From a virus (lineage: Duplodnaviria; Heunggongvirae; Uroviricota; Caudoviricetes), in IMG/VR virus record IMGVR_UViG_3300031993_000018, positions 89,614-153,613 of that record: 64,000 bases of DNA; one strand, 5' to 3'. Under the pieces are notes generated by a model. It did not search any database and was not told the DNA's origin. It saw only the letters and a program-made list of their open reading frames with translations. Shown here piece after piece: positions 4,789-62,377 of this stretch (positions within the stretch are counted from its first letter, which is position 1; each line of letters opens with the position of its first letter). The position numbers and the translations under genes are program-made.

Positions 4789-5889
4789 ATGTATTTATGT
4801 ATGAATAAGAATTTTTTAGAAGATTTTTTGAAGACTTACAGACCTTCAGGGTTTGAACAGGAAGGTGCTGAAGTGTTTGTCAGTAATGCCTGTGGACTCA
4901 AAGGAGTCAAGAAAGAGTTTATTGATAAGATGTGGAATGCATGTGTGAGTGTGGGTAGTGAAAAGGAGGATGCACTGAAAATCCTCATCTCCGGTCACTC
5001 TGATCAGAACTGTCTCATTGTGACTGAAATCACAAAGAATGGTTTCCTCAAGTATGCAACCCAGGGTGGATTCTCTCCAAGGACAGTAATTGATTCAGAC
5101 CTCTTTGTCATCACAAACAATGATGGTGTGAAGAAACTTATCCCCTGCTTCTGTAGTTATAAAGCAATACATATAGAAAAACCGGATGACAGAAAGAAAT
5201 GTCCAGAACATAAGGATCTCTATCTTGATTTGGGATGTACATCCAGGGAACAGGTTGAGAAACTCGGTGTACATATAGGTGACCTGGTTGTATTCAACAA
5301 CAGTGGTCTGAATATGGACTTTGGTCCTGATGGCAACTACATTGTAGGTTCAGGTCTTGATGATGGTGTTGCTTGCGGAATCGTTTATGATGTCCTGAAG
5401 AAACTTGATGAGAATGAACTCAAGGAGATGAACATCAGGGTATATGGTGCATGCATCACATCAGAGGAAACTGGTGCCAGGGGTGTTGGTCCTGTAGTAA
5501 GAAAGGTTCAGCCACATATCTCCATAGATATTGATGTATGTCATGACTGCACCAAGGAGATTGGTGAGGATGAAGGCCGGATTGCAAAGATGGGTGATGG
5601 TGCTGTCCTGAACTATGGTCCTGACAAATACAGACCTCTCAATGAAGACTTGAGACAGATTGCAAAGGATTATGACATCAAGTTGCAACTCATTGCCGGC
5701 AAGGCAGGAGGTACAAACACCAACAACATCCAGATGATGTCAGACAACTGTGCCACAACCCTGTTGAGTATCCCTTGCAGATATATGCACAGCGGAACAC
5801 ATGAGATGGTCAATAAGGATGACATTGATGGTTGTGGTCAGCTCATATACAAGTTCATCAACAAGGTAGATCCAAAGAAGTATGTATAA
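4789..5889 (+). CDS. M42-family metallopeptidase (glutamyl aminopeptidase / cellulase-M like)
   Basis: Segments GHSDQNCLIVTEITKNGFLKY, GSGLDDGVACGIV, ITSEETGARG and RYMHSGTHEM line up with the conserved metal-ligand blocks of M42/FrvX peptidases. Confidence 0.6.
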   Translation: MYLCMNKNFLEDFLKTYRPSGFEQEGAEVFVSNACGLKGVKKEFIDKMWNACVSVGSEKEDALKILISGHSDQNCLIVTEITKNGFLKYATQGGFSPRTVIDSDLFVITNNDGVKKLIPCFCSYKAIHIEKPDDRKKCPEHKDLYLDLGCTSREQVEKLGVHIGDLVVFNNSGLNMDFGPDGNYIVGSGLDDGVACGIVYDVLKKLDENELKEMNIRVYGACITSEETGARGVGPVVRKVQPHISIDIDVCHDCTKEIGEDEGRIAKMGDGAVLNYGPDKYRPLNEDLRQIAKDYDIKLQLIAGKAGGTNTNNIQMMSDNCATTLLSIPCRYMHSGTHEMVNKDDIDGCGQLIYKFINKVDPKKYV

Positions 5890-17292: not shown

Positions 17293-17874
17293 ATGAATAT
17301 TGAAATTTCACAAGAGGATTATGAATTCCTGAAGGAGTTACAGCATGAACTGAACACTCAGGAGAATGATGGAAATGCTGACCCTGTATTCTGGGGTGTG
17401 GAAGAGACTGTTGAAGAGTGCAGAGGTGGTGATGGTGAATATGGTGGAGACCCATATATTCATTATGATGATGGTGACTGGACACTTGAAGAGGCAATTG
17501 AAGAGGTTGAGAATGCATTCAAGGATGAGGACAACTATGGTCCATATGATGAAGATACCCGTGAAGCATGGAAGGAGGTTGACAAGACCTGCGCAGAGGA
17601 TGTCTATGATTTTATGACAGAAGAACTTGGATGGAATTTTGTCTATGGTGTTGTTTATGTTGAAAAGGTACCGAGGGTGACTCCCTATACTGGAGCATTC
17701 ATCACCAAGAGGGCTTGTAAAAACTATATTGAGAGATTTGGTTACAATCACAACAATCCTCACACATATGCTATGACAGCATACAGGAACTTTGAGTTGG
17801 CAAGACTGATAAAGATTCTCAAGACTATGAACTTTAAAGATTCAGACAATGGGGGAAAAGAAGCAGATGCATGA
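17293..17874 (+). CDS. Hypothetical acidic protein
   Basis: 193 aa ORF, strongly D/E-rich in the N-terminal half. Confidence 0.45.
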   Translation: MNIEISQEDYEFLKELQHELNTQENDGNADPVFWGVEETVEECRGGDGEYGGDPYIHYDDGDWTLEEAIEEVENAFKDEDNYGPYDEDTREAWKEVDKTCAEDVYDFMTEELGWNFVYGVVYVEKVPRVTPYTGAFITKRACKNYIERFGYNHNNPHTYAMTAYRNFELARLIKILKTMNFKDSDNGGKEADA

Positions 17875-23041: not shown

Positions 23042-23647
23042 ATGCTGACAGTAGATGAAATGAAGTCCAATTCTGAACTCTACACATTGAGGGAAAGTCT
23101 TGGAAGACACACCCAACCGGTGATGTTGGATTACAGAATAGGTGATGCCCTTGTGAGTGATGACCTCACACACAGGGGAAGAAAGTATGATATGGATGTT
23201 TATCTTGAGAAATACAAGACAAACCTTCAGCGTCCTTATGTATGGACATATCCACAGCAGAATGCTTTCATCCAGTCTGTCCTTTATGACAAGGTTGTAT
23301 CTCCATTTGTTGTAATCATGCACTCTTTGAGTAATGATGGTCTTGGTGACAAGATTGTATATGTCATTGATGGCAAGCAGAGGCTCACTACTGTCCATAA
23401 GTTTATGCACAATGAGTTTCCTGTTGAGGTTGGTGGTGAGAAATATTACTACAAGGATTTTGATGATGACTTGAAGACCTATTTCAACAGAAACCTTGAC
23501 CGCTTTGTGGCAATTGTGTATTACAGTTACCCTTATGAACCGGTCACTGATGATGAGAAGATCCAGATCTTCAACTTCTACAACTTCACAGGTACTCCCC
23601 AGGCAGAGGAACACAAGATTAAGTTACAGAACCTTTTGAAGAAATAA
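23042..23647 (+). CDS. Hypothetical protein
   Basis: 201 aa ORF. Confidence 0.45.
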   Translation: MLTVDEMKSNSELYTLRESLGRHTQPVMLDYRIGDALVSDDLTHRGRKYDMDVYLEKYKTNLQRPYVWTYPQQNAFIQSVLYDKVVSPFVVIMHSLSNDGLGDKIVYVIDGKQRLTTVHKFMHNEFPVEVGGEKYYYKDFDDDLKTYFNRNLDRFVAIVYYSYPYEPVTDDEKIQIFNFYNFTGTPQAEEHKIKLQNLLKK

Positions 23648-24247: not shown

Positions 24248-24973
24248 ATGAAATTTCTGATACAGACAGTAAATAAACAGATTACATATGACTTCATTTT
24301 TGAGTTGACCATATGTAAGGAATACTTTGATTGGATTGGAAGGGATTTCAAACTCAAGAAACATGAAGGTCTGAACTTTGATGATATAAAGAACCCGGAC
24401 CAGTATGTCCCTGTTGGTTCTGTTGAGTTTGTATCAGAGTATTTGAGGAAGTTTTACCCCCAGGCAGAGAAAGCACTCATACCTATCAATGTTCCAGAAC
24501 AGTTGTTCCCATTTGCCGGCAGAACCATTGCCAACATAACCAAACCGGAGGATATGAATGGGTTTGATTGTCTTGTGTACAGAAAGTCTTTGGATACAAT
24601 AAAGGATCCCAACAATGGATGGTGGGGATTTCCTGAATATGAATGGTGTAAGGGTTACCAGGTTTCCACTCCAATTGATAACATTATTTCTGAATGGAGA
24701 GTATTTGTATTCAATGATGTAATTGTGGATGCAAAAAACTACAGGGGTGACTTTTTCGTATGTCCGGATGAAGAAACAGTTTCCAATATGGTGAAAGCAT
24801 ATAAGAATTCACCCAGAGCATATACGCTTGATGTAGCAGTCACAAGTGAAGGTAAAACTGTAGTGATTGAGTGTCACCGGTTCTTTTCATGTGGTCTGTA
24901 TGGATTTTGTGAGCATGATAAATATCCTGTAATGCTTTCACAGGAATGGTTTGAAATGAAAAATATGAGATAA
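24248..24973 (+). CDS. ATP-grasp fold enzyme
   Basis: EWRVFVFNDVIVDAK and LDVAVTSEGKTVVIECH resemble ATP-grasp C-terminal strands (RimK-like E.RV.V.G.VV and D....G...V.E.N). Confidence 0.4.
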   Translation: MKFLIQTVNKQITYDFIFELTICKEYFDWIGRDFKLKKHEGLNFDDIKNPDQYVPVGSVEFVSEYLRKFYPQAEKALIPINVPEQLFPFAGRTIANITKPEDMNGFDCLVYRKSLDTIKDPNNGWWGFPEYEWCKGYQVSTPIDNIISEWRVFVFNDVIVDAKNYRGDFFVCPDEETVSNMVKAYKNSPRAYTLDVAVTSEGKTVVIECHRFFSCGLYGFCEHDKYPVMLSQEWFEMKNMR

Positions 24974-25580: not shown

Positions 25581-26258
25581 ATGAAACACTATGACAGTAT
25601 TCCCAGACTCCAGGATGATGGAACACTGAAAGGAGAGATGGTCGCCGGGTACAACAAACTTGACGGTCAGAACTTCTGTGTCACATATAATTGTAGAAAG
25701 AAAACCTGGGGACCTTATGGATCCAGGACTGTCACTGTTGATGAGAACTCTGAACAGTTTGGGGACACGGTTAGATTCTTCAACAACTCCGGTTACAAGG
25801 AGATACTTGGAAATATCATCAAGGAGTATTCAGGTAAGGGAGATGTGTTCAATGGTGTTGAAGAAGTCACATTCTTCTTTGAGTGGTATGGGTGGAACTC
25901 ATTCGCTGGCAAACACAAGGAAGGTGACAAGATGCACCTGGCACTCATTGATGTGTTCCTGAAGAAGAGAGGTTATATGGAACCCAAATCATATGAGATG
26001 TGTTTCAGAAATTGCGGAATTGAACTTCCTGATCTCATATATTCCGGACCACTCAATGCAGACATTATAGAAAAGGTTCAGAACAATGACTGGACAGACC
26101 CGGATTGTTGGAATTCCAAAGTACATGAGGGTGTTGTCTTCAAAAGAACAACACTCCTGAAAGGACAGAGGAGACCATCAGTCAAGGTGAAGACCAAATG
26201 GTGGTTGGACACTCTCCACTCACTTTATACAGAAGAGGAATGTAAGAAACTTGAGTGA
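25581..26258 (+). CDS. ATP-dependent RNA/DNA ligase-like nucleotidyltransferase (small)
   Basis: Motif I KLDGQN (KxDGxN), motif IV-like EGVVFK and downstream lysines in RPSVKVKTKWW. Confidence 0.5.
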   Translation: MKHYDSIPRLQDDGTLKGEMVAGYNKLDGQNFCVTYNCRKKTWGPYGSRTVTVDENSEQFGDTVRFFNNSGYKEILGNIIKEYSGKGDVFNGVEEVTFFFEWYGWNSFAGKHKEGDKMHLALIDVFLKKRGYMEPKSYEMCFRNCGIELPDLIYSGPLNADIIEKVQNNDWTDPDCWNSKVHEGVVFKRTTLLKGQRRPSVKVKTKWWLDTLHSLYTEEECKKLE

Positions 26259-27111
26259 TATGGAAGGATACAGTATAAATCCATTAGACTATCTTAACCA
26301 GGCACTTAATTATGCACATCGTTGGAAACTTGATGTCAATCTTGAAAATCCGACCACAATACAGGACAAACTGTTCTGGTTGAATTTCTATGACCAGGAC
26401 ATCAGAAAGTCCAGATGTGCAGATAAACTGTTAGTCAGGGAGTATGCAAAAGAAAAACTTGGTTTTGACATCAACATACCAATATTAAAGGTGTATGACA
26501 GTGTTGATGACATAAACCTGGATGAACTCCCAGATAAGTTTGTCATAAAGTGTAATCATGGAAGTTCAATGAACATTGTTGTCAAAGACAAGAGTTCATT
26601 TGACTTTGAAAAAGCAAAGGACAAACTCAGGAAATGGATGAGTATTGATTATGCACTATATAATCATTATGAGTTCCATTACCATGACATACAACACAAG
26701 ATTCTGATTGAGGAATACAAGGAAGATCTCAAGACCAATGAACTCAGGGATTACAAGTTCAGCTGTTTCAATGGTGTTCCCAAAGTTATGTGTGCAATCA
26801 CAAACCTGTTCAAACACAATGAGACAACCAACTATTATGATATGGATTTCAATCCATTGACTGATATGTCCCTGATATATCATCCTGCAAACTACAATGT
26901 CCAGATTGATAAACCCAAAGGGTTTGAAAAGATGATAGAGTATGCCACAAAACTCTCCCAGGACTTTAAGTATGTCAGGGTAGATTTCTTCAGTATCAAT
27001 GGTGATGTGTATCTGAGTGAGATGACATTCACACCACATGCCATAATCTGGTTGAGATTCAATAACCCCAAATATGACCTTGAACTGGGTAATATGCTTA
27101 ATATAAAGTAA
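26251..27111 (+). CDS. TupA-like ATP-grasp protein
   Basis: IQDKLFWLNFYD, ADKLLVREYAKEKLG, FVIKCNHGSS, DYKFSCFNGVPK and FTPH blocks match what I recall of the TupA-like ATP-grasp family. Confidence 0.55.
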   Translation: MSDMEGYSINPLDYLNQALNYAHRWKLDVNLENPTTIQDKLFWLNFYDQDIRKSRCADKLLVREYAKEKLGFDINIPILKVYDSVDDINLDELPDKFVIKCNHGSSMNIVVKDKSSFDFEKAKDKLRKWMSIDYALYNHYEFHYHDIQHKILIEEYKEDLKTNELRDYKFSCFNGVPKVMCAITNLFKHNETTNYYDMDFNPLTDMSLIYHPANYNVQIDKPKGFEKMIEYATKLSQDFKYVRVDFFSINGDVYLSEMTFTPHAIIWLRFNNPKYDLELGNMLNIK

Positions 27112-33282: not shown

Positions 33283-34074
33283 ATGGCAAAAAAGAAGGAG
33301 AATGAAGAGGAGAAGACAATCTCTCCAAGTCAGTACTTTGATTTCTTGAAGGGAGCAAAGAACATCATCACAACCGAGGCACTCAAGGAGTCATATGATG
33401 TGTTCATAAAACTGGCTGAAAAGTACCAAAAGATAGGTCAGGTGGAGTCTCTCAAGAAGCTTTGCTTCCTTGCAGACACACTGGTGAAGGAGGAGAAACT
33501 CATTGAGATGGGAATCAACACATTCATCTATAAGGACACCATTGAGGACTACATTGAGAATGTGGCAGGTAAGACCGTCAAGATTGTGGAACTCTCCAGA
33601 TATATGAGAGAGGTTCCGGATGAACTGGTGGAGACCATTGAAAAGACCAAGAGTCTCTTCAATGAGTTCTATGTAATCTTCACAGACTATACCGGTAAGG
33701 AAGAGAGAAAGATTGAGAAGGAGAGAAGGGATAAGGATCCCATCCTGTTCGGTGTGTTCAAAGACAACACCAATGTATCTGACCGCTTCTACTTCCTGGG
33801 TGACTGGGTGGATGAGTATTGTGACCTCACCCTTGACAAGATGGTTGAGCAGTACAAGTCAAAGAAGAATGTCTCACCTGTTGTAACCACAGAGATACCC
33901 AAGGATAGTGATGAACTTGTTTCAATCCTCAAGACATACAAGATTGAGGAGAAGAAGGGTAACAGTTACATAACCCTTACACCCAATGATCCGCTTCCTG
34001 TTGCCAATTACAAGGTAGAGGGTGAAAAGAAACCCGGATTCTTTAAGAAGGTCTTCAGTGTATTTAAGAACTAA
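33283..34074 (+). CDS. Hypothetical protein
   Basis: 263 aa ORF immediately upstream of the leader-family array. Confidence 0.5.
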   Translation: MAKKKENEEEKTISPSQYFDFLKGAKNIITTEALKESYDVFIKLAEKYQKIGQVESLKKLCFLADTLVKEEKLIEMGINTFIYKDTIEDYIENVAGKTVKIVELSRYMREVPDELVETIEKTKSLFNEFYVIFTDYTGKEERKIEKERRDKDPILFGVFKDNTNVSDRFYFLGDWVDEYCDLTLDKMVEQYKSKKNVSPVVTTEIPKDSDELVSILKTYKIEEKKGNSYITLTPNDPLPVANYKVEGEKKPGFFKKVFSVFKN

Positions 34075-34076
34075 GT

Positions 34077-34481
34077 ATGCTTCCGAGAAACATTGATCTC
34101 ACCGAGAATAGAGACTTTGGTGGTGATGGAGAATTGGATGGACTTGACATATCACTCTGGTGGGATGATGATGAATTGATAACTCCTGCCCAGTGGCACA
34201 ATAGTGTAAGGTTTCAGAGTTTCTTTGGGAAAAGAATCCACAAGAATGAGAAGGATAAAATCTTCACTCATATGGATCTTCCATTTCTCACAGGTGATGA
34301 AGGTAGATGTACCAAGTGTGGTCGCTTATTAGTCCCCTGGAATAGGTTTCACGGATTCTGTATGGGATGTAAAGATGAAATGGAAAAGTTCACACCAAAG
34401 GACATTCCTTGGCGGAACAATGAACTAAGAATAGTTAGAGCTGGTGACAGAGGTCAGGGAGATTTATTCAATTTAAGATGA
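34077..34481 (+). CDS. Hypothetical zinc-ribbon protein
   Basis: RCTKCGRLL...FCMGCK; its stop overlaps the next start as ATGA. Confidence 0.45.
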   Translation: MLPRNIDLTENRDFGGDGELDGLDISLWWDDDELITPAQWHNSVRFQSFFGKRIHKNEKDKIFTHMDLPFLTGDEGRCTKCGRLLVPWNRFHGFCMGCKDEMEKFTPKDIPWRNNELRIVRAGDRGQGDLFNLR

Positions 34482-34654
34482 GTATCTGGGGTGATATGCT
34501 TGACAAAGGTCAGGGAGATATGGAGAGAGGAGAAGACCTTCCACATATCAGAAGTCTTTATCCCTCAGTGTTTGGTAAGAAAAATCCCACAAGAAAGGAT
34601 TTGGAAGACTATAGAGAAATGTGTGAAAACTTAAATAAAATATTTGGACTATGA
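34478..34654 (+). CDS. MSIWGDMLD-leader family member 0 (58 aa)
   Basis: Hand translation gives MSIWGDMLDKGQGDMERGEDLPHIRSLYPSVFGKKNPTRKDLEDYREMCENLNKIFGL. Start and stop both overlap neighbours as ATGA. Confidence 0.5.
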   Translation: MSIWGDMLDKGQGDMERGEDLPHIRSLYPSVFGKKNPTRKDLEDYREMCENLNKIFGL

Positions 34655-34920
34655 GTATCTGGGGTGACATGCTTGACCGGGGAACCGGGGAGAAAATAAA
34701 GAAGGAGGATATCATCCCCTTTCCTAACTTTGATGAACTTTTTTATCCTGATATTACTATTAATCCCAAATCATTTACTGTAGATTATTTAGACCAATTA
34801 AGAGATTTCTCAAAGAAAACATCAGATATAGAAAGTAAACTATCAGATGTGGAAAAGAAACTCAAGGAACTTGGAGTTACAATAAATGATTTTACCAAAT
34901 CATGTAGATTACCATTATGA
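34651..34920 (+). CDS. MSIWGDMLD-leader family member 1
   Basis: MSIWGDMLDRGTGEKIKKEDIIPFP...; unique C-terminus. Confidence 0.6.
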   Translation: MSIWGDMLDRGTGEKIKKEDIIPFPNFDELFYPDITINPKSFTVDYLDQLRDFSKKTSDIESKLSDVEKKLKELGVTINDFTKSCRLPL

Positions 34921-35177
34921 GTGTCTGGGGTGACATGCTTGACAGAGGTAGAGGTATAAGAGAAAAGAAAGAAGATGATTACCTCTCCAAAATGAAAAGT
35001 GCGGGTGTATATAAACCTGTATTTGTACCCTGGTGGAAGAATTTTGACTCTACTGATATTGATATTGATGAAGATGCAATAAAGGAGATGAACAATTTCA
35101 GCTGGGATAAAATGTGGAAGAAACAGAATATCAATGATGAATATTCAAGAGACCTTTTATCCAAACTGTACAAATAA
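34917..35177 (+). CDS. MSIWGDMLD-leader family member 2
   Basis: MSVWGDMLDRGRGIREKKEDDYL...; unique C-terminus. Confidence 0.6.
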   Translation: MSVWGDMLDRGRGIREKKEDDYLSKMKSAGVYKPVFVPWWKNFDSTDIDIDEDAIKEMNNFSWDKMWKKQNINDEYSRDLLSKLYK

Positions 35178-35182
35178 ATCTT

Positions 35183-35500
35183 ATGGGAGTCTGGGGAAAA
35201 ATACTTGACCAAGGTTGTGGTATAAAGATTAAGAAGGAGAATGAATATTTGGAGAATCTGAAAAGGATGATTAGAGATGTCCTATCTTCCCATAAGGTTT
35301 GTCCAGATGGTGACCCACCAATCAAAAATTTCTTTATTGAGGTTGAAGAAGATGGAGGAGTACAAAGATATTCCATTACCCTTGCAGCCTTGGAACACAA
35401 AGATGAATATGGACAAATAACAAGAGATTTTAATAGTCTTGATAATTTGGAAAGCATCCTTAAACTACTTAAAAAAGGAAAAATAATATATGTATTTTAA
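35183..35500 (+). CDS. MSIWGDMLD-leader family member 3 (divergent leader MGVWGKILDQGCGIKIKKENEY)
   Basis: The leader is conserved at both protein and DNA level (atgggagtctggggaaaaatacttgac). Confidence 0.55.
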   Translation: MGVWGKILDQGCGIKIKKENEYLENLKRMIRDVLSSHKVCPDGDPPIKNFFIEVEEDGGVQRYSITLAALEHKDEYGQITRDFNSLDNLESILKLLKKGKIIYVF

Positions 35501-35502
35501 TT

Positions 35503-35916
35503 ATGAGTATCTGGGGTGATATGCTTGACCGGGGAACCGGTGAAAAGATAAAGAAGGAGGATCTCATTGCCGATCCACTGGGGACACTTGAAAAAAGTGT
35601 TATAGTGTATATAGGACCTGTGGACAGAACAGTGTTTCCCACAATGCCGGCGGAAAAAGGACAACTGTACTATGTAAAGGATGAGGTAACCATTGAAGGT
35701 GTAACCTTTCCAGCAGGTTCAGGTATAGTCTATGATGGAACCAAGTGGGTAAATGTAGGTGGTTACACTGTTGAAAGGGTAGATGCCAATATCGATTACC
35801 TTAAACCTGATTCTGGTTTGGAATATATCCCTGAGCCGCCGCGAATTACAATAGCAGCATATGACGATGACGGAGTATATGTACCAAAGTCAATAGGATG
35901 GAAAAATAATTTTTGA
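35503..35916 (+). CDS. MSIWGDMLD-leader family member 4
   Basis: MSIWGDMLDRGTGEKIKKEDLIADP...; 137 aa. Confidence 0.6.
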   Translation: MSIWGDMLDRGTGEKIKKEDLIADPLGTLEKSVIVYIGPVDRTVFPTMPAEKGQLYYVKDEVTIEGVTFPAGSGIVYDGTKWVNVGGYTVERVDANIDYLKPDSGLEYIPEPPRITIAAYDDDGVYVPKSIGWKNNF

Positions 35917-35945
35917 TTAATCAAGAAAAATCATTATATTTGTAA
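35916..35945 (+). promoter_or_regulatory. Sigma-AB type promoter (TTTG, then 19 nt, then TATATTTG)
   Basis: TTTGattaatcaagaaaaatcatTATATTTGtaag, upstream of the nucleotidyltransferase gene. Confidence 0.5.
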
Positions 35946-35968
35946 GAGAAGAGACATTTAATCTTATT

Positions 35969-37288
35969 ATGAAACTAACATTAGAGAATATTACAATCAA
36001 AGACCACAAGATTTATGACCCGGAAGGAAACTTCAGGGGAGAAATCTTGTATGAGTACATTCGTGGTTCTCATCTGTATTCAACCAATGTGGAGACATCA
36101 GATGAAGACCAGGGAGGTATCTACATTATGCCTAACAGCACCATATTGGGTCTTGGTCTTGACTATCAGAATGAGATAAAGGATAAGAGTAATGACAAGT
36201 GCATCTGGGAGTTGGGAAGATTCCTGGAACTTGCCCTGTCTTCAAACCCAACTGTCCTGGAGGCACTCTTTGTTCCTGGTGATAAGGTCATCTATGAACA
36301 TCCTGTCATCAAGGAGATCCGTTCACACCGTGATGAGTTTATCACCAAGAAGTGTTTTGCACCATTTGGAGGTTATGCTTCAAGTCAGATAAAGAAGGCT
36401 CAGGGTCAGAACAAGAAGATCCACTGGGATATTGCCCAGATGGTAAGGAAGACTCCTATGGACTTCTGTTATACCTTGAAGAACCAGGGTAGTCAGCCTA
36501 TGCAGGACTGGTTGGATGAAAGAGGACTTGATCAGAGAAACTGTGGTCTGGTCAATATTCCCAATATGCCTGATATGTTCGGTGTGTATTATGACTGGGG
36601 TCAGCACATCAGACTTGCCGGTATCACCAAGGAGTATTTCACCAATAAGGAGAATTACTACAAGGATAAGTTTATCAAGACTATGGACATGTATCTTGGA
36701 AATGAATATATCCTCCATGAGGATGGAAACCTTGAGGATGAACTTGAATATATCTGGGATCATCACTCTGAACCTCATGGTGGTTACTGTGGAATCATCT
36801 CACCCAATGAGGATTCCAACACAGTAAGGTTCTCTTCTGTTGTCAAGGGTGAGAAACCCATCTGTTATATGTCTTACAATGCCAATGCATATATATCACA
36901 TTGTAAGGAGTATAGGGAGTATGAGGACTGGAAGGAACACAGAAATCCAGCAAGGTATGAATCCAATATGGAGGGAGAGAAGTCAGGCAATGCAGATATG
37001 AAATATGACTGCAAGAATATGATGCACTGCTTCAGGTTGATGGCAATGGCAAAGGAGATTGCAGAAGGAAAGGGTGTGATCCTGGATCGCGCTGGTATTG
37101 ACAGGGAGTTTCTCCTGGATGTTAGAAACCGTAAGTATGGTTATTCTGAACTCCAGAAGAAGATGCTTGACCTGAAGGATGAGATGGATGCTGCCATTGA
37201 GAAATCTACCATCAAGGATGAGATTGATCCCCAAATGGTCAATGACCTCCTCCTGGAAGCAAGAAAACATTTTAATTCAAAAGATTAA
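35969..37288 (+). CDS. Pol-beta superfamily nucleotidyltransferase (GSHLYST...SDED motif)
   Basis: Near the N-terminus, IRGSHLYSTNVETSDEDQGG fits the GS...(S/T)D.D nucleotidyltransferase active site. The ~440 aa protein probably carries a helical substrate-binding extension. Confidence 0.5.
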   Translation: MKLTLENITIKDHKIYDPEGNFRGEILYEYIRGSHLYSTNVETSDEDQGGIYIMPNSTILGLGLDYQNEIKDKSNDKCIWELGRFLELALSSNPTVLEALFVPGDKVIYEHPVIKEIRSHRDEFITKKCFAPFGGYASSQIKKAQGQNKKIHWDIAQMVRKTPMDFCYTLKNQGSQPMQDWLDERGLDQRNCGLVNIPNMPDMFGVYYDWGQHIRLAGITKEYFTNKENYYKDKFIKTMDMYLGNEYILHEDGNLEDELEYIWDHHSEPHGGYCGIISPNEDSNTVRFSSVVKGEKPICYMSYNANAYISHCKEYREYEDWKEHRNPARYESNMEGEKSGNADMKYDCKNMMHCFRLMAMAKEIAEGKGVILDRAGIDREFLLDVRNRKYGYSELQKKMLDLKDEMDAAIEKSTIKDEIDPQMVNDLLLEARKHFNSKD

Positions 37289-38266: not shown

Positions 38267-39112
38267 ATGTATTTCAAAAACCTAAAAGAAAAGTGCGAAT
38301 ATTACCGTTCGCTTACTGATTATAAACTGATGTCAAACTCTTATGTCCTGGTGATGGTGGATGGTCACTGTTTCAGCAAGATGATCAAGAATAAGTTTGA
38401 CAAACCATTTGATGATGAGTTCATCAATATGATGAATGAGACTGCAAAGTATCTGTGTGAACAGGTACAGGGAGTTAAGTTTGCATACACACAGTCTGAT
38501 GAGATTTCACTTCTCATCACAGACTTTGACACACCAGTAACCGATGCATACTTTAGTTTCAGACTCTGTAAGATGCAGTCACTCATTGCTGCACTGGCAA
38601 CTGCCAAGTTCAACCAGTTATATGCCATCCATAACATTGGTAAGGAAGTGAGTGGTGGCAGCAACAAGATTGAACTTAAGAAGACTATTCCACTCTGTAC
38701 ATTTGACTGTAAGGTATGGACTGTTCCAAATGCAAATGACGCCTATGCCTGGTTCCTCTACAGACAGACTGACTGTATCAAGAACTCAAAGGCACAGACA
38801 GCCCAGACATATCTTCCACACAAACAGTTGGTGGGTCTGACAGCAGATGATATGATTGCCAAACTCAAGGATGAGCAGAACATTGACTGGTATGAGTTTG
38901 TCAATGGTAAGAAGTATGGAAGACTCATCAGGAAAGTGGAGACTCCTATGGAGAAAGACCTTTCCAATGGACTACACATTGAATACATAAGGAATGTATG
39001 GACACCTGTTGAGATAACAGACTTGAGAGAGGATGGGTCACAAGTGAGAGATCTGATTCCTGAACTGTTCAGACCTGGTGTTAATATAAAAGAAGAAATC
39101 ACAGAAGAATGA
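38267..39112 (+). CDS. Thg1-like protein (tRNA-His guanylyltransferase family 3'-5' nucleotidyltransferase)
   Basis: YVLVMVDGHCFSKMIKNKFDKPFDDEFINMMNETAKYL and FAYTQSDEISLLI parallel the Thg1/TLP N-terminal catalytic blocks (R.DGR.FH.F...KP.D....M...A...AYG.SDE.S..L). Confidence 0.65.
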   Translation: MYFKNLKEKCEYYRSLTDYKLMSNSYVLVMVDGHCFSKMIKNKFDKPFDDEFINMMNETAKYLCEQVQGVKFAYTQSDEISLLITDFDTPVTDAYFSFRLCKMQSLIAALATAKFNQLYAIHNIGKEVSGGSNKIELKKTIPLCTFDCKVWTVPNANDAYAWFLYRQTDCIKNSKAQTAQTYLPHKQLVGLTADDMIAKLKDEQNIDWYEFVNGKKYGRLIRKVETPMEKDLSNGLHIEYIRNVWTPVEITDLREDGSQVRDLIPELFRPGVNIKEEITEE

Positions 39113-47150: not shown

Positions 47151-48368
47151 ATGATTAAACTTACAAAAGGTAAAGTTACCGCTATCATTTGCGGTGTGTT
47201 CACAATCATCGTTCTCTGTCTGTTGGGCAGTATAGGTGAGGATGTAAAGAACAAGACAATCGTTGTTAACCAGTATCCCATTTCAGGTCGTATGGCCTAT
47301 TGGACTGAACCTGGTTTCAAGTGGCAGTTGTTCGGTAAGACAACTACTTATTACAAGACCGAGCAGTTGTGGTTCGGTGGTAAGGACATCAATGACAACC
47401 CCATTGGATCTCCCATCCCGGTGAAGTTCTATGACGGTTCTGATGGTATGATTTATGGTTCTCTCCGTGTTGAGCTTCCTACAGACACAAAGTATCTGGC
47501 AAAGATTCAGAGAGAGTATGACAGTATGGACCGACTCATGAATGACCTGGTTAAGCAGACAGTAAGTAAGGTTATATATGCGACAGGTGCTTTGATGACA
47601 GGATTTGAGTCTTATGCAGAGAAAAAGAATGACTTCTTGGAGTATGTTCAGGACCAGCTCGCTCATGGTGTATATAAGACAAATGTTAGGATAGAAGAGG
47701 TTAAGGACCAGGCAGGTAATATAGAGAAACTCAAGATTGCCAGTCTTATACCCGACACAGCATCTGCAAATGGTTACAAGAGATCTGAGACTTCACCCTT
47801 TATGGATTATGGAATTAAGGTGAACCAGGTATCTATTTCAACAATTGACTATTCACAGAAGGTTAAGGACCAGATTGCACAGCAGCAGGAGTCAAATATG
47901 TTGGCACAGACTGCAAAGGCCAAGGCTGCAGCCGCAGCACAGGAGGCAATCCGTGCAGAGGAGGAAGGTAAGGCAAAGGCTGCTCAGGCAAAGTGGGCAC
48001 AGGAGACCATCAAGGCTACAGAGGTGACAAAGGCAGAGCAGGAGTATGAGGTTGCCGTCACCCAGGCAAAGCAGCAGAGGGAGACCGCCAAGCTTGCAGC
48101 AGAGAAGGCAGAGTTTGATAAGAAGAGAATTATCGCCCAGGGTGAGGCTGAGGCCGCAGCTAACAGAGCAAAGGTCAATGCTGGTCTGACTCCTCAGGAG
48201 AGGGCAGAGTGGGACTTCAAGACCAAGGTTGGTGTCGCAGAGGCAATCTCCAAGGTTAATCTTCCTACAATCGTAATGACCGGTTCAGGTTCAAATGGTA
48301 GCTCATCAGCACTGGATGCAATGGGTCTGAAGATGCTGACCGATCTGGCAGACAAAATGTCCAAGTAA
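47151..48368 (+). CDS. SPFH/band-7 (stomatin/HflKC/flotillin-like) membrane protein
   Basis: N-terminal TM, central SPFH-like region, and a long Ala/Glu/Lys/Gln-rich coiled coil (AKAKAAAAAQEAIRAEEEGKAKAAQAKWAQE...) typical of HflK/flotillin C-termini. Confidence 0.6.
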   Translation: MIKLTKGKVTAIICGVFTIIVLCLLGSIGEDVKNKTIVVNQYPISGRMAYWTEPGFKWQLFGKTTTYYKTEQLWFGGKDINDNPIGSPIPVKFYDGSDGMIYGSLRVELPTDTKYLAKIQREYDSMDRLMNDLVKQTVSKVIYATGALMTGFESYAEKKNDFLEYVQDQLAHGVYKTNVRIEEVKDQAGNIEKLKIASLIPDTASANGYKRSETSPFMDYGIKVNQVSISTIDYSQKVKDQIAQQQESNMLAQTAKAKAAAAAQEAIRAEEEGKAKAAQAKWAQETIKATEVTKAEQEYEVAVTQAKQQRETAKLAAEKAEFDKKRIIAQGEAEAAANRAKVNAGLTPQERAEWDFKTKVGVAEAISKVNLPTIVMTGSGSNGSSSALDAMGLKMLTDLADKMSK

Positions 48369-51357: not shown

Positions 51358-52197
51358 ATGGTTATAAATTACACCAACCTTAATGAGAACATCAACATCT
51401 ATTTCAAGGAGATCCGCAACTTCGCATCCCTGACAAGAGAAGATGAGGTAAGACTGTTCTCAAGAATCAAGACAGGTGACAAGTCAGCACAGGCTGAAAT
51501 CTTCAACAGGATGGCCAAGCTGGCGGTCAACATTGCCAAGACATACACAGGTGATGCAGACCTTTTGGAAGATCTCATCCAGGAGGCAAACATTGGTATC
51601 CTTACCGCCATTGACAAGTTTGACCTCAATTCCGGTTTCAGATTTTCATCATATGCCCGTTACTGGATGAAGGCCGCCATTTCCAAGTATCTTGATGAAA
51701 TGGGTGTGGTACGTCACTGCAATCCCCATCTTGTTGACCTGGCCAACAAAATCCGTGAGAAGTTCTACAAGGAGAACCAAAGGGATATCACCAGTGTGGA
51801 ACTGATGGATATGTTGGAGGATGCAGGTGAGGTGGTTGATGACATCAAGTCAATCACCAGCATCACCAATGTGAGGATTGATCTTCCTTATGATTGTGAT
51901 GAGTCCGGAAAGCCAAAGGGCGAATATGGAGACTTCGCAGACCGTACTGCCTGTGACAATGGGTTTGTAGAAAAGGAAAGAGCCGAGGAACTTTCAGAAG
52001 ACATCAGACGAAGACTCTCAAGACTCACTCCGAGGGAGCAGCAGTTGGTCCTGTTGATGTACGGTTTCGTCACCGGAGAAGAAATGGGTTATGACGCTGT
52101 TACAGAAAGGTGGAATGAAGGTAAGCCCGAGAAGGAACAGCTCACACAGGAGAGAGTCCGTCAGATCATCAAGGGTGCACTCAAAAAGATGAAGTAA
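51358..52197 (+). CDS. Sigma-70 family RNA polymerase sigma factor
   Basis: Region 2 LLEDLIQEANIGILTAIDKFDLNSGFRFSSYARYWMKAAI (compare DLIQEGNIGLMKAVDKFD...F.TYA.WWIRQAI); region 4 LTPREQQLVLLMYGF...ERVRQIIKGALKKM. Confidence 0.7.
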   Translation: MVINYTNLNENINIYFKEIRNFASLTREDEVRLFSRIKTGDKSAQAEIFNRMAKLAVNIAKTYTGDADLLEDLIQEANIGILTAIDKFDLNSGFRFSSYARYWMKAAISKYLDEMGVVRHCNPHLVDLANKIREKFYKENQRDITSVELMDMLEDAGEVVDDIKSITSITNVRIDLPYDCDESGKPKGEYGDFADRTACDNGFVEKERAEELSEDIRRRLSRLTPREQQLVLLMYGFVTGEEMGYDAVTERWNEGKPEKEQLTQERVRQIIKGALKKMK

Positions 52198-55500: not shown

Positions 55501-55755
55501 ATGGCAATACGAAAAGTAACAAATGAGGAACTTCGTCAGATGATGAAGGAGGGAAAGGTGACTTTCCAGTACAAGAAGAAGGACGGTTCAATCCGTCAGG
55601 CAACAGGTACACTCAAACCTGAGCTCATTGAGAAGAAATCACAAGGAGGTCCTTGTTATCCCAAGGAAGCAGGATATTCAGTCTATTGGGATATGGATAA
55701 GAGGTGGTACAGAGTCTATGCGGAGTCTCAGCTTGTTGGTGTTGTCGAAGGTTAA
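55501..55755 (+). CDS. Small stand-alone domain protein, homologous to the C-terminal domain of leader-family member 58458..58892
   Basis: VTFQYKKKDGSIRQATGTLKPELIEKKSQGGPCYPKEAGYSVYWDMDKRWYRVYAESQLVGV aligns with IVRFQYRKK....RTAWGTRKSEVITKIPHGGECPPKKVGYSLYFDMEKSDWRVFWSGRLIGV. Confidence 0.5.
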   Translation: MAIRKVTNEELRQMMKEGKVTFQYKKKDGSIRQATGTLKPELIEKKSQGGPCYPKEAGYSVYWDMDKRWYRVYAESQLVGVVEG

Positions 55756-58457: not shown

Positions 58458-58892
58458 ATGAGTATTTGGGATGATATGCTTGATAAGGGTGTCGGTGAAA
58501 AGGAGGCTCTGGAAGACAGGGCTCAGTTCAGGGATGACATCACTCCTGAAGATTTGAATGAGATGCTCCTTTCCGGAATTGTCCGTTTCCAATACAGAAA
58601 GAAGGCAAAGAAAGGTCAGCCGGAGGACAGTGGTGAGGTCAGGACTGCCTGGGGTACCAGGAAGTCAGAAGTGATCACCAAGATTCCTCACGGTGGTGAA
58701 TGTCCCCCCAAGAAAGTCGGTTATTCTCTCTACTTTGATATGGAGAAATCCGATTGGAGGGTGTTCTGGTCAGGAAGACTGATTGGAGTATGGGACAAAG
58801 TTTACACTGAACCTGAATTCACCAGGCTGTATGCCAAACTGAAGGCAGAAGAGGCCAAGGAGAAAAAGGAAGAGGTGATACCTGAAGAATAA
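58458..58892 (+). CDS. MSIWGDMLD-leader family member 5 (leader fused to the 55501-type domain)
   Basis: MSIWDDMLDKGVGEKEALED..., then a domain homologous to 55501..55755, then a K/E-rich tail. Confidence 0.6.
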   Translation: MSIWDDMLDKGVGEKEALEDRAQFRDDITPEDLNEMLLSGIVRFQYRKKAKKGQPEDSGEVRTAWGTRKSEVITKIPHGGECPPKKVGYSLYFDMEKSDWRVFWSGRLIGVWDKVYTEPEFTRLYAKLKAEEAKEKKEEVIPEE

Positions 58893-61693: not shown

Positions 61694-62377
61694 ATGAAGA
61701 ATATAGAAGACATAAACACCAAATATCCAAGGACATATCATCTGCCTTGGTCACCCGGAGCCACTTCTGATGACAAGAAGTTGTCCTCAGACTGGTTTGA
61801 TGCAGATGAATGGAAAGGAAAGGAGATTGTGATCACTGAGAAGCTTGACGGTGAGAACACCGCCTTCTGGAATGGTGATGTCTTCAGCAGAAGTCACTCG
61901 GTTCCCACCAGGTCACCCTGGTCAAGAAACCTTTGGGACAAAGATGGACTCCTGTGGGTGATAAAAGACAAGATCTCCCCGGAAGAGATTGTCTATGGTG
62001 AGAACCTTTATGGTGAACACAGCATACACTATGACAGACTTCCGGCGTATTTCTTCGCCTTCGCCTGCCGCAGGGAAAATCAGTGGTGGAGTTGGGATGA
62101 TGTTGTTCTGATGGCGGATATTCTGAATGTACCGACAGTTCCTGTCCTGTGGAGAGGAAGGTTGGAGTCAGAGTCTGAACTGAAGGAGATGATCTCCAGG
62201 TTTATGTCCCAACCATCGGCATTCGGTGATACAAAGGAAGGAGTGGTGATAAGAAAGGTCGAAGGATTTGACAACAAGGACTTCTCCAAGAATGTCGCCA
62301 AGTATGTGAGGGAAAATCATGTCCAGACTGACCAACACTGGACAAAGAACTGGAAAAGAGCAAAGTTAATAGTTTGA
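61694..62377 (+). CDS. ATP-dependent RNA ligase-like nucleotidyltransferase
   Basis: N-terminal KYPRTYHL, motif I KLDGEN, motif IV EGVVIRK, plus downstream Lys residues. Confidence 0.55.
   Translation: MKNIEDINTKYPRTYHLPWSPGATSDDKKLSSDWFDADEWKGKEIVITEKLDGENTAFWNGDVFSRSHSVPTRSPWSRNLWDKDGLLWVIKDKISPEEIVYGENLYGEHSIHYDRLPAYFFAFACRRENQWWSWDDVVLMADILNVPTVPVLWRGRLESESELKEMISRFMSQPSAFGDTKEGVVIRKVEGFDNKDFSKNVAKYVRENHVQTDQHWTKNWKRAKLIV

Follow-up and report, generated by a model that had tools for sequence, protein, structure and literature searches.

A short leader on unrelated small proteins of an uncultured phage recurs at module junctions in rumen and gut megaphage proteins

Introduction

Bacteriophage T4 carries 10-residue capsid-targeting sequences (CTSs) on otherwise unrelated internal proteins (PMC3012670). 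In the CTS of IPIII, MKTYQEFIAE, the processing determinants are residues 8 and 10, and the cut falls after Glu (PMC9026906). Giant-phage head proteases all cut after Glu, and some paralogues of the phages SPN3US and phiKZ share identical N-terminal propeptides that are removed at this residue (PMC5694885). For polyvalent proteins, packaging and processing have been predicted (PMC5512222). Here we analyse a 64,000-nucleotide (nt) stretch of a tailed phage (Caudoviricetes; IMG/VR record IMGVR_UViG_3300031993_000018, positions 89,614 to 153,613), hereafter the window, in which six genes for small proteins begin with a common leader and continue into unrelated sequence. A first, sequence-only reading of the window had likened this leader to the T4 CTSs.

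We find that the six genes are members of an undescribed family of uncultured rumen and gut jumbo and mega-phages, in most of whose proteins the leader also stands at internal positions. We propose, with a probability of about 45%, that the leader is a signal recognised in trans by one lineage-specific factor, and that it would serve as a handle for docking and probably as a site of processing too.

Results

Six genes of the window share a leader of 20 residues

Exactly six plus-strand open reading frames (ORFs) of the window bear the leader, five in tandem (g1 to g5, 34478-35916; 58, 89, 86, 105 and 137 residues) and one apart (g6, 144 residues; Table 1). All six start with the pattern M[SG][IV]W[GD][DK][MI]LD.G.G.....E[DN], and a hidden Markov model (HMM) of the leader, made from 360 motif instances and run against the six reading frames of the window, picked out exactly these ORFs with expect values (E) from 3e-12 to 3e-5, the next best match lying at E 0.88. 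The ORF pattern and the HMM thus confirm the five tandem genes and the distant sixth that had been read from the letters. The 27-nt start sequence occurs five times at three mismatches or fewer (0.00 expected from 100 dinucleotide-preserving shuffles), and the leader of g4 is a copy more diverged than these five. Likeness at the DNA level sets in exactly at the ATG and fades after codon 20; the shared start described earlier holds, at 20 residues rather than up to 27. Among the window copies, no conserved sequence was found 5' of the ATG. The six cargoes, compared with one another by phmmer, gave no cross-matches, in agreement with the unrelated C-termini of the sequence-only reading.

The leader genes are real: orthologues occur on an independent 10-kb contig (L001) and on the fragments L002 and L003, and the ratios of non-synonymous to synonymous substitution rates (dN/dS) are 0.14-0.62. 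The orthologues of g1 are P0001 and L001 6167-6343 (dN/dS 0.14), that of g2 is L001 6340-6612 (0.61) and that of g4 is P0020 (0.62); dN/dS of g3 is 0.24. For g5, only close orthologues were found among 5.8 billion proteins, and its AlphaFold model, based on two sequences, had a predicted local distance difference test score (pLDDT) of 43, was unusable and was discarded. The g2 cargo is probably helical, and that of g3 is a distant paralogue of a 63-residue cassette, gX, of L001 and L002 (jackhmmer E 1e-13). The cargoes of g4 and g5 are related to P0098 and P0088, respectively, two proteins of class i as defined below.

The start of g1 overlaps the stop of the upstream gene g0 as ATGA, and the same overlap joins g1 to g2 and g2 to g3. 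The three ATGA overlaps noted before are therefore present, but only two link family members, the third leading from g0 (34077-34481), which lies outside the leader family, to g1. In this genome, such overlaps are nothing unusual, occurring at 10 of 100 gene junctions. The position and overlap of g0 are kept in L001 (5769-6170; 91% amino acid identity; dN/dS 0.18), and g0 matches no Pfam family. A scan of the array for sigma-70 promoters and terminators gave no excess over shuffles.

The leader is a motif of a large protein family

A profile of the leader, padded to 44 residues as a query, retrieved only three proteins, all from close relatives, in a word-indexed search of 5.8 billion proteins. 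An exhaustive search of 1.84 billion cluster representatives yielded 112 at E <= 1e-3, 34 of them at E <= 1e-10, all metagenomic and without names, and one three-module member used as query gave 392 homologous clusters at 90% identity.

Two classes can be told apart. Class i, to which the window genes conform, comprises proteins that start with M-S-[IV]-W (21 representatives); their cargoes are varied and include one with HExxH, one with a membrane segment and one 220-residue protein from a cluster of 202 members. Scanning Joint Genome Institute (JGI) metagenomes revealed more class-i genes, some in tandem arrays of two or three and others single (114-392 residues). The HExxH protein, P0071 (305 residues; L012 10001-10918), has no Pfam match. 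Its neighbours look bacterial (a LeuA-like gene, three BspA-type LRR_5 proteins, a helix-turn-helix and M78 peptidase pair, an ATP-binding cassette transporter), and, given these surroundings, the tag may extend to prophages or islands.

Class ii comprises proteins of 170-1159 residues from contigs of 136-412 kb, that is, from jumbo and mega-phages; most of the 112 representatives are of this kind, with 300-1159 residues and the motif in 2-7 copies. Here each module opens with the motif, which occurs 1-7 times at a spacing of ~150 residues. A prefix such as MKKLSKIxE, MIPxFKTYLxE, MGVIKTCSEYLxE or similar stands before the first copy. A strictly N-terminal element, as the leader appeared in the window, it is therefore not: most relatives have it at internal positions, in as many as seven copies.

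The family was found solely at the protein level. The exact 27-nt motif, for which the sequence-only reading had proposed a scan of gene starts in related phages, has no match in IMG/VR, and a second IMG/VR scan with an SIWSDMQ-type pattern returned nothing. DNA and protein searches of 50,697 deposited phage genomes gave nothing except an unrelated neighbouring gene, and neither motif type is present in the 185,579 species-representative bacterial and archaeal genomes of GTDB. Sequence searches of Pfam, PHROG, NCBIfam and PDB returned nothing that covers the motif or the commonest module, which bears out the earlier statement that no described family has this leader. The motif, its presence at every junction, its predicted retention and the size of the family are undescribed in the libraries and literature searched.

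The leader is an add-on to diverse domains

In g6, the leader stands before a WYL_2 domain (Pfam PF10902, E 1.5e-11; phrog_1086, E 3e-09). A paralogue of this cargo that lacks the leader lies ~3 kb upstream, and the gene call by JGI on a matching contig likewise assigns PF10902 to its counterpart (window 55501-55755), so that tagged and untagged copies are kept in one genome. Because the leaderless paralogue exists, the leader is an add-on to a pre-existing domain. In relatives, the domains behind the motif include DUF285, a BspA-type leucine-rich repeat (LRR; E 1e-30 and 2e-24), several helical modules, a common module of ~150 residues and, by a weak match, Lcl_C-like modules. With at least ten other module families in addition, the constant tag on diverse cargo proposed from the window is well founded. 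At E 1e-8, the modules fall into ~60 clusters. GNAT domains occur as pre-modules, N-terminal to the first motif copy (P0005, P0009, P0176), and MPTase, ART and ParB were not detected among the relatives by Pfam.

The common module accounts for 129 of 292 modules and always begins with the motif, its conservation running slightly further (DDVNLLD..FYDY). Using 35 sequences, we modelled it in AlphaFold2 flanked by two motif copies, one on either side. The prediction is confident for the module (pLDDT 85-94), whereas the two motif copies reach only pLDDT 46-62 and show no more than a short unpacked helix over S-I-W-S-D-M-Q-D-R. The invariant columns of the alignment, in turn, lie almost entirely inside the two motif copies. 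The most conserved segment is thus not built into the predicted fold, which is the signature of a linear recognition motif.

These results bear on an alternative, already allowed for by the sequence-only reading, that the leader is the mere conserved N-terminal edge of one fast-diverging domain family and has no function of its own. The prevalence of a single ~150-residue family that always starts with the motif, and conservation reaching slightly inward, would be expected of such an edge. However, the motif precedes independent Pfam families (WYL_2, DUF285) and many unrelated modules, the window cargoes show no similarity to one another, one cargo has a leaderless paralogue in the same genome, and the motif lies outside the modelled common module and is far more conserved than any module. 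We therefore regard a domain edge as very improbable.

The long multi-module relatives (L004 299-2230 on the minus strand, L006 10001-13048, P0004, P0005 and P0008) have in common a C-terminal segment of ~100 residues, E-C-x-G-V-P-G-G-x-T-P-x-x-V-G-G-M-G-x-A-Y-F-P-G-P...poly-K...F-R-K-E-D-E-P-C-V-H-S-P-N-A-K-V-Y-D-Y-V-D-D-F-R. This possible anchor matches nothing in Pfam, PHROG or PDB, and the window contains no homologue of it.

Selection acts on the peptide

Among the six window leaders, the proportions of synonymous (pS) and non-synonymous (pN) differences are 0.39 and 0.12 in codons 2-9 and 0.91 and 0.34 in codons 10-20, where synonymous sites are saturated. The conservation of wobble positions pointed out by the sequence-only reading is thus found in the first block and not in the second. 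Leu is CTT in all six leaders (24% usage), GAC recurs in five, and AGT is the serine codon of every window leader that has serine. Part of the reduced pS is mechanical, since an AGY serine codon (AGT) is forced where the start is an ATGA overlap, and we ascribe the reduction in codons 2-9 to occasional leader-to-leader recombination. The window has a single tRNA-Ser gene (1149-1237; anticodon GCT), which reads AGY codons.

The leaders of g2 and g5 encode identical peptides, with differences at 4 of ~11 synonymous and 0 of ~46 non-synonymous sites. The same peptide despite four synonymous differences indicates purifying selection on the peptide. Recent gene conversion between the two was rejected as the source of their identity on account of these four differences; the recombination that had been named as its alternative is found in the g5 leader (below). 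All synonymous codons are in use for the conserved residues at distant loci (among others, Ser TCA/TCC/TCT/AGC; Arg AGA/AGG/CGC; Gly GGT/GGA/GGG), and because synonymous sites vary freely within the motif, selection acts on the protein.

It had also been suggested that an RNA- or DNA-level function constrains the leader, and a nucleotide element at gene starts (a translational operator, a coupling signal or a recombination site) might be what is primarily selected. The low pS of codons 2-9, the recurrent CTT and GAC and the position of the recombination joint, which falls in the codon 2-9 block, would suit such an element. Yet distant relatives keep the peptide while varying its synonymous positions, and their copies are mostly internal; in the window, AGT is forced by ATGA, the drop in pS is explained by leader recombination, codons 10-20 are saturated and nothing is conserved upstream of the ATG. 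Unlike a DNA-level repeat or regulatory cassette, the leader has no conserved non-coding flank, and similarity begins at the ATG. As the main constraint, a nucleotide-level function finds no support in these data, and we give it very little credence.

Across four genomes, motif copies of the same genome differ nearly as much at synonymous sites as copies of different genomes do (pS 0.63 versus 0.70) and far less in the peptide (pN 0.166 versus 0.282), neither difference being reached in any of 5000 label permutations. Each genome has its own consensus variant (STWGG.., SVWSDME.., SIWSDIQDRS.. or SIWGDMLDRG..), a pattern that, judged from these sequences, fits co-evolution with one trans-acting partner per lineage.

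A Glu-Ser step precedes the motif

The consensus of 282 occurrences is [VILM]-N-E-S-[IV]-W-[SG]-D-[MI]-x-[DE]-R-[GS]-x-G-[DE]-x-[VI]-[RK]-K-E-D, in which the W, R and G, the closing E-D and, three residues before W, a Glu are near-invariant. The peptide combines a short amphipathic helix with a turn at Gly and a charged tail. Of the 181 internal copies, 177 have the Glu three before W, as do 80 of the 101 N-terminal ones; the other 21 N-terminal copies have the initiator Met at this position, as in the window. Five residues before W, 82% of internal copies have V, I, L or M, and almost every N-terminal copy that follows a prefix has I or L. Class-ii copies are thus preceded by hydrophobic-x-Glu and then Ser, and class-i proteins begin exactly at that Glu position. 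As this sequence, which resembles a T4-type cleavage site ([VIL]-x-E|S), lies directly upstream of the motif, a cut there would leave the motif on the mature protein.

The sequence-only reading had instead proposed a CTS that is itself cleaved off by a prohead protease, the trimmed cargoes being injected as host-takeover or anti-defence effectors. Unrelated cargoes indeed share the leader, as in the T4 internal-protein loci (PMC3012670), and the leader ends in a near-invariant Glu-Asp, T4-type and giant-phage head proteases cutting after Glu; moreover, some relatives have T4-like genes and one member adjoins a terminase gene. The end of the leader, however, does not resemble the known sites. 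The conserved Glu19 of the window leaders is preceded by K-K, R-G, A-L or similar, so that the third position before the cut (P3) is not L or I, and in the wider motif the terminal Glu follows [VI]-[KR]-K, with a basic P3, unlike the sites of T4 (L/I-x-E) or phiKZ and SPN3US (S/A/G-x-E). An [IL]-x-E|S site occurs only upstream of the motif in relatives, where window proteins have no residues. The motif is, furthermore, internal and repeated in most relatives, and their separate CTS-like prefix upstream makes it look retained. Removal of the leader as a CTS is consequently unlikely in our judgement.

Recombination, fusion and fission occur at the motif

The gene gX lies between g4 and g5 in L001 and L002 and is absent from the window. 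The window sequence upstream of g5 and through about codon 3 matches the L001 junction from g4 to gX (ATGAGTATC...), and from about codon 11 window g5 matches the leader of L001 g5 (GGAACCGGTGAAAAGATAAAG...). The window g5 leader is thus a chimera of two adjacent L001 leaders, which explains the presence or absence of the 63-residue cassette; as these alignments indicate, the cassette was gained or lost by recombination inside the leader. Between the window (33283-37288) and L001, dS is 0.10-0.25 in the array (91-97% nt identity) and 0.7-0.9 in the flanking genes (82-85%), and the lower value in the array suggests recent horizontal exchange of this region.

In megaphages, modules that are reciprocal best hits exist as stand-alone genes in one genome and, in another, take the second or third place within a longer ORF, with several independent cases of fusion or fission among L004, L006 and L008. 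At one conserved position, which adjoins S-adenosylmethionine-synthetase-like, Metallophos and Cpn10 genes, long proteins have four, six or seven modules and the same C-terminal segment, the possible anchor.

Genome setting and host

The window is a co-directional block of small genes, among them a Dda-like helicase, a NUDIX protein, a DNA methyltransferase and the further genes of Table 1. The array itself lies between the Cys-rich g0 and the RlaP nucleotidyltransferase. A protein of 193 residues (17293-17874; phrog_3205, function unknown) is 71.5% identical to a gene adjoining RecA in the class-ii locus L006, and is the only well-conserved gene common to that locus and the window. The exact g5 protein is on record from a contig of 153.6 kb. 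A near-identical contig of 121 kb exists in JGI metagenome 3300028887, and related contigs are labelled as bovine or rumen samples. Shine-Dalgarno-like words are depleted upstream of window starts (10% versus 19% background), the upstream regions are A-rich, and a DUF3575 gene lies just upstream of the window (L010), from which we infer a Bacteroidota-type host; the Bacteroidetes -7 box (TAnnTTTG) is not enriched (60 versus 55 expected).

Contigs of relatives with T4-like genes encode Cpn10, a gp47-like Metallophos phosphoesterase, RecA, PolB and a weak match to T4 gp15. In the 20-kb loci of relatives, no protease that would go with a T4-like head was seen. A conserved two-module member of ~311 residues lies 16 nt downstream of the large terminase gene (L023 8011-10936, on 373 kb; L024 4011-6939, on 250 kb). 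This terminase has a faint intein-splicing match.

The setting is relevant to another explanation, in which the motif is a docking peptide for a non-virion partner, such as a hub protein of host or phage, a chaperone or a modifying enzyme in the infected cell, without proteolysis, the relatives being multivalent and the window genes monovalent. A conserved, flexible motif under protein-level selection with genome-specific variants is what such docking predicts, fusion and fission are tolerated, and the array stands among early-looking non-structural genes. It leaves unexplained, on the other hand, the near-invariant Glu before internal copies and its exact replacement by the start codon, as well as the CTS-like prefixes and the terminase-adjacent member, and no candidate partner was identified. 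We consider it doubtful, if the most probable of the alternatives.

The window further encodes an M42 glutamyl aminopeptidase and two ATP-grasp enzymes, and a link of these to the Glu/Asp-rich motif is conceivable. In relatives, a RimK-like ATP-grasp and a RimB-like protease adjoin the multi-module gene. Loci for ribosomally synthesised and post-translationally modified peptides (RiPPs) typically hold tandem precursors with a constant leader and a variable remainder. The window genes, tandem, tightly packed and dissimilar beyond a near-identical leader, look alike, and their leader might recruit a modifying enzyme, for example a phage ATP-grasp, whose target would be either the Lys/Glu/Asp-rich end of the motif or the cargo; enzymes of this kind are at hand in the window and near the relatives' multi-module gene. 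The cargoes, however, are folded domains (WYL_2, LRR) of up to several hundred residues, the motif is repeated within proteins of ~1000 residues, a distance of 8-10 kb separates the ATP-grasp genes from the array, to which they are unlinked in L001, and there is no adjacent maturation enzyme, protease or transporter. RiPP-like precursors are the least probable of the explanations weighed here.

Table 1. Features of the window discussed in the text
Feature	Position	Strand	Description
g1	34478..34654	+	Leader 34478-34537 and 38-residue cargo; leader HMM E 2e-08
g2	34651..34920	+	Leader 34651-34710 and 69-residue cargo; leader HMM E 3e-12
g3	34917..35177	+	Leader 34917-34976 and 66-residue cargo; leader HMM E 5e-09
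g4	35183..35500	+	Diverged leader (MGVWGKILDQGCG...) and 85-residue cargo; leader HMM E 1e-05
g5	35503..35916	+	Leader 35503-35562 and 117-residue beta-rich cargo; leader HMM E 5e-12
g6	58458..58892	+	Leader, 7-residue linker, WYL_2 (residues 28-111), Lys/Glu-rich tail; leader HMM E 3e-05
Recombination joint in g5 leader	35503..35532	+	Comparison with L001
Leaderless WYL_2 paralogue of g6 cargo, 84 residues	55501..55755	+	BLASTP 44% identity over g6 residues 28-111, E 1e-21
g0, Cys-rich (CxxC...CxxC), 134 residues, outside leader family	34077..34481	+	Translationally coupled to g1 via ATGA
RNA-repair-type set: RlaP nucleotidyltransferase, Thg1-like tRNA-His guanylyltransferase, two RNA ligases	35969-37288, 38267-39112, 25581-26258, 61694-62377		
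Sigma-70 family factor	51358-52197		
GmrSD_N-like protein	23042-23647		
SPFH protein	47151-48368		
M42 glutamyl aminopeptidase	4789-5889		E 7e-54
Two ATP-grasp enzymes	24248-24973; 26251-27111		R2K clade E 8e-20; TupA-like E 9e-49
Sizeable minus-strand ORF, sole one in its stretch, 310 residues	3826-4758	-	Weak phrog_10 (major head protein) match, E 9e-5; no Pfam match

Discussion

The comparisons establish a family of proteins with a portable leader that is selected at the protein level, at which genes fuse and split and within which recombination has joined two neighbouring copies. Since a flexible, selected peptide precedes unrelated domains and has genome-specific variants, recognition in trans by one factor is the simplest reading. 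We infer recognition of this kind, cleavage between Glu and Ser, and packaging. In the relatives, a Glu-specific protease of the T4 gp21 type would cut Glu|Ser before each motif, releasing modules with Ser-Ile-Trp... as their new N-terminus. The window genes would then be "pre-cut" modules with Met in place of Glu, in which removal of the Met would give the same N-terminus without cleavage. The handle would be retained and could give all cargoes a common fate. Our leading guess is that they enter the head and are delivered with the DNA, in the way of T4 internal proteins and, as predicted, of polyvalent proteins, although another hub might serve as well. At the DNA level, the leader copies in addition provide substrates for homologous recombination, by which cassettes are added, removed and fused.

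Several points weigh against a trans-recognised handle that is also a processing junction. The array stands among small non-structural genes, whose products serve nucleotide metabolism and RNA repair. A CTS-like prefix, present in relatives, is missing from the window proteins, and several cargo types (LRR, lectin-like) are atypical of injected effectors. The Glu-Ser step could instead be a helix N-cap, hydrophobic-x-Glu being short and common, and the coincidence of start codon and cleavage point may count as one observation, not 21, if the M-S-[IV]-W proteins share one ancestral event. The genome-specific consensus could reflect shared ancestry, pS being slightly lower within genomes and near saturation, and the low pLDDT of the motif may stem in part from its placement near the ends of the modelled chain.

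A wider version of the trans-recognised handle, which we hold only tentatively and think rather less probable than the narrower form, makes the motif a universal junction-and-address signal of rumen and gut megaphages. One factor, be it a head protease, a scaffold or another hub, would serve dozens of domains per genome; a cut at Glu|Ser would leave a retained handle that loads exchangeable effector modules, and the window phage would represent the gene-per-module state. If the peptide is indeed a shared signal for address or processing, the motif would offer a sequence handle for cataloguing the cargo repertoire of uncultured giant phages, which comprises dozens of genes per genome and hundreds of clusters, now all annotated as hypothetical. 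It would also extend the concepts of capsid targeting in T4 and of polyvalent proteins to a motif that is retained, is repeated at junctions and doubles as a recombination site, and a transferable tag would be a candidate tool for putting proteins into phage particles. Whatever the mechanism, the family is a clean case of modular evolution, with fusion, fission and the gain and loss of cassettes at one short repeat.

Among described systems, the paralogue families of the phiKZ inner body and families A and B of SPN3US resemble ours in being lineage-specific multigene families of variable copy number in giant phages. They are homologous over their whole length (e.g. pfam12699), whereas here only the 20-residue peptide is common, and no sequence or profile similarity of the leader proteins to them was found in Pfam, PHROG or other libraries. 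Polyvalent proteins (Iyer, Burroughs, Anand, de Souza, Aravind 2017; PMC5512222) are closer in architecture. Like them, the relatives string together two to seven disparate modules, including GNAT, in varying number and order, and these modules also occur as solo genes; packaging and release of modules have been predicted for polyvalent proteins too. Unlike them, no zincin MPTase or other hub domain was found by Pfam, and most modules are of unknown type. The span of 2-15 domains is matched by the relatives (up to 1159 residues) and not by the single-module window genes, and one 20-residue motif at every module boundary, as in the relatives, has not been described for polyvalent proteins.

The CTSs and internal proteins of T4 resemble the window genes in that a short constant N-terminal peptide sits on unrelated small proteins in a variable locus, whose cassette content here differs between the window and L001. 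The relatives' prefixes are 8-13 residues long and share the format of MKTYQEFIAE|A, with [IL]-x-Glu at the end and a small residue after it, and several relatives are found in genomes with T4-like core genes. In contrast to the T4 CTS, the window proteins begin without a prefix and their leader does not end in (L/I)-x-Glu; the leader has 20 residues of unrelated sequence, lies downstream of the putative cut and so would be retained, and is repeated up to seven times.

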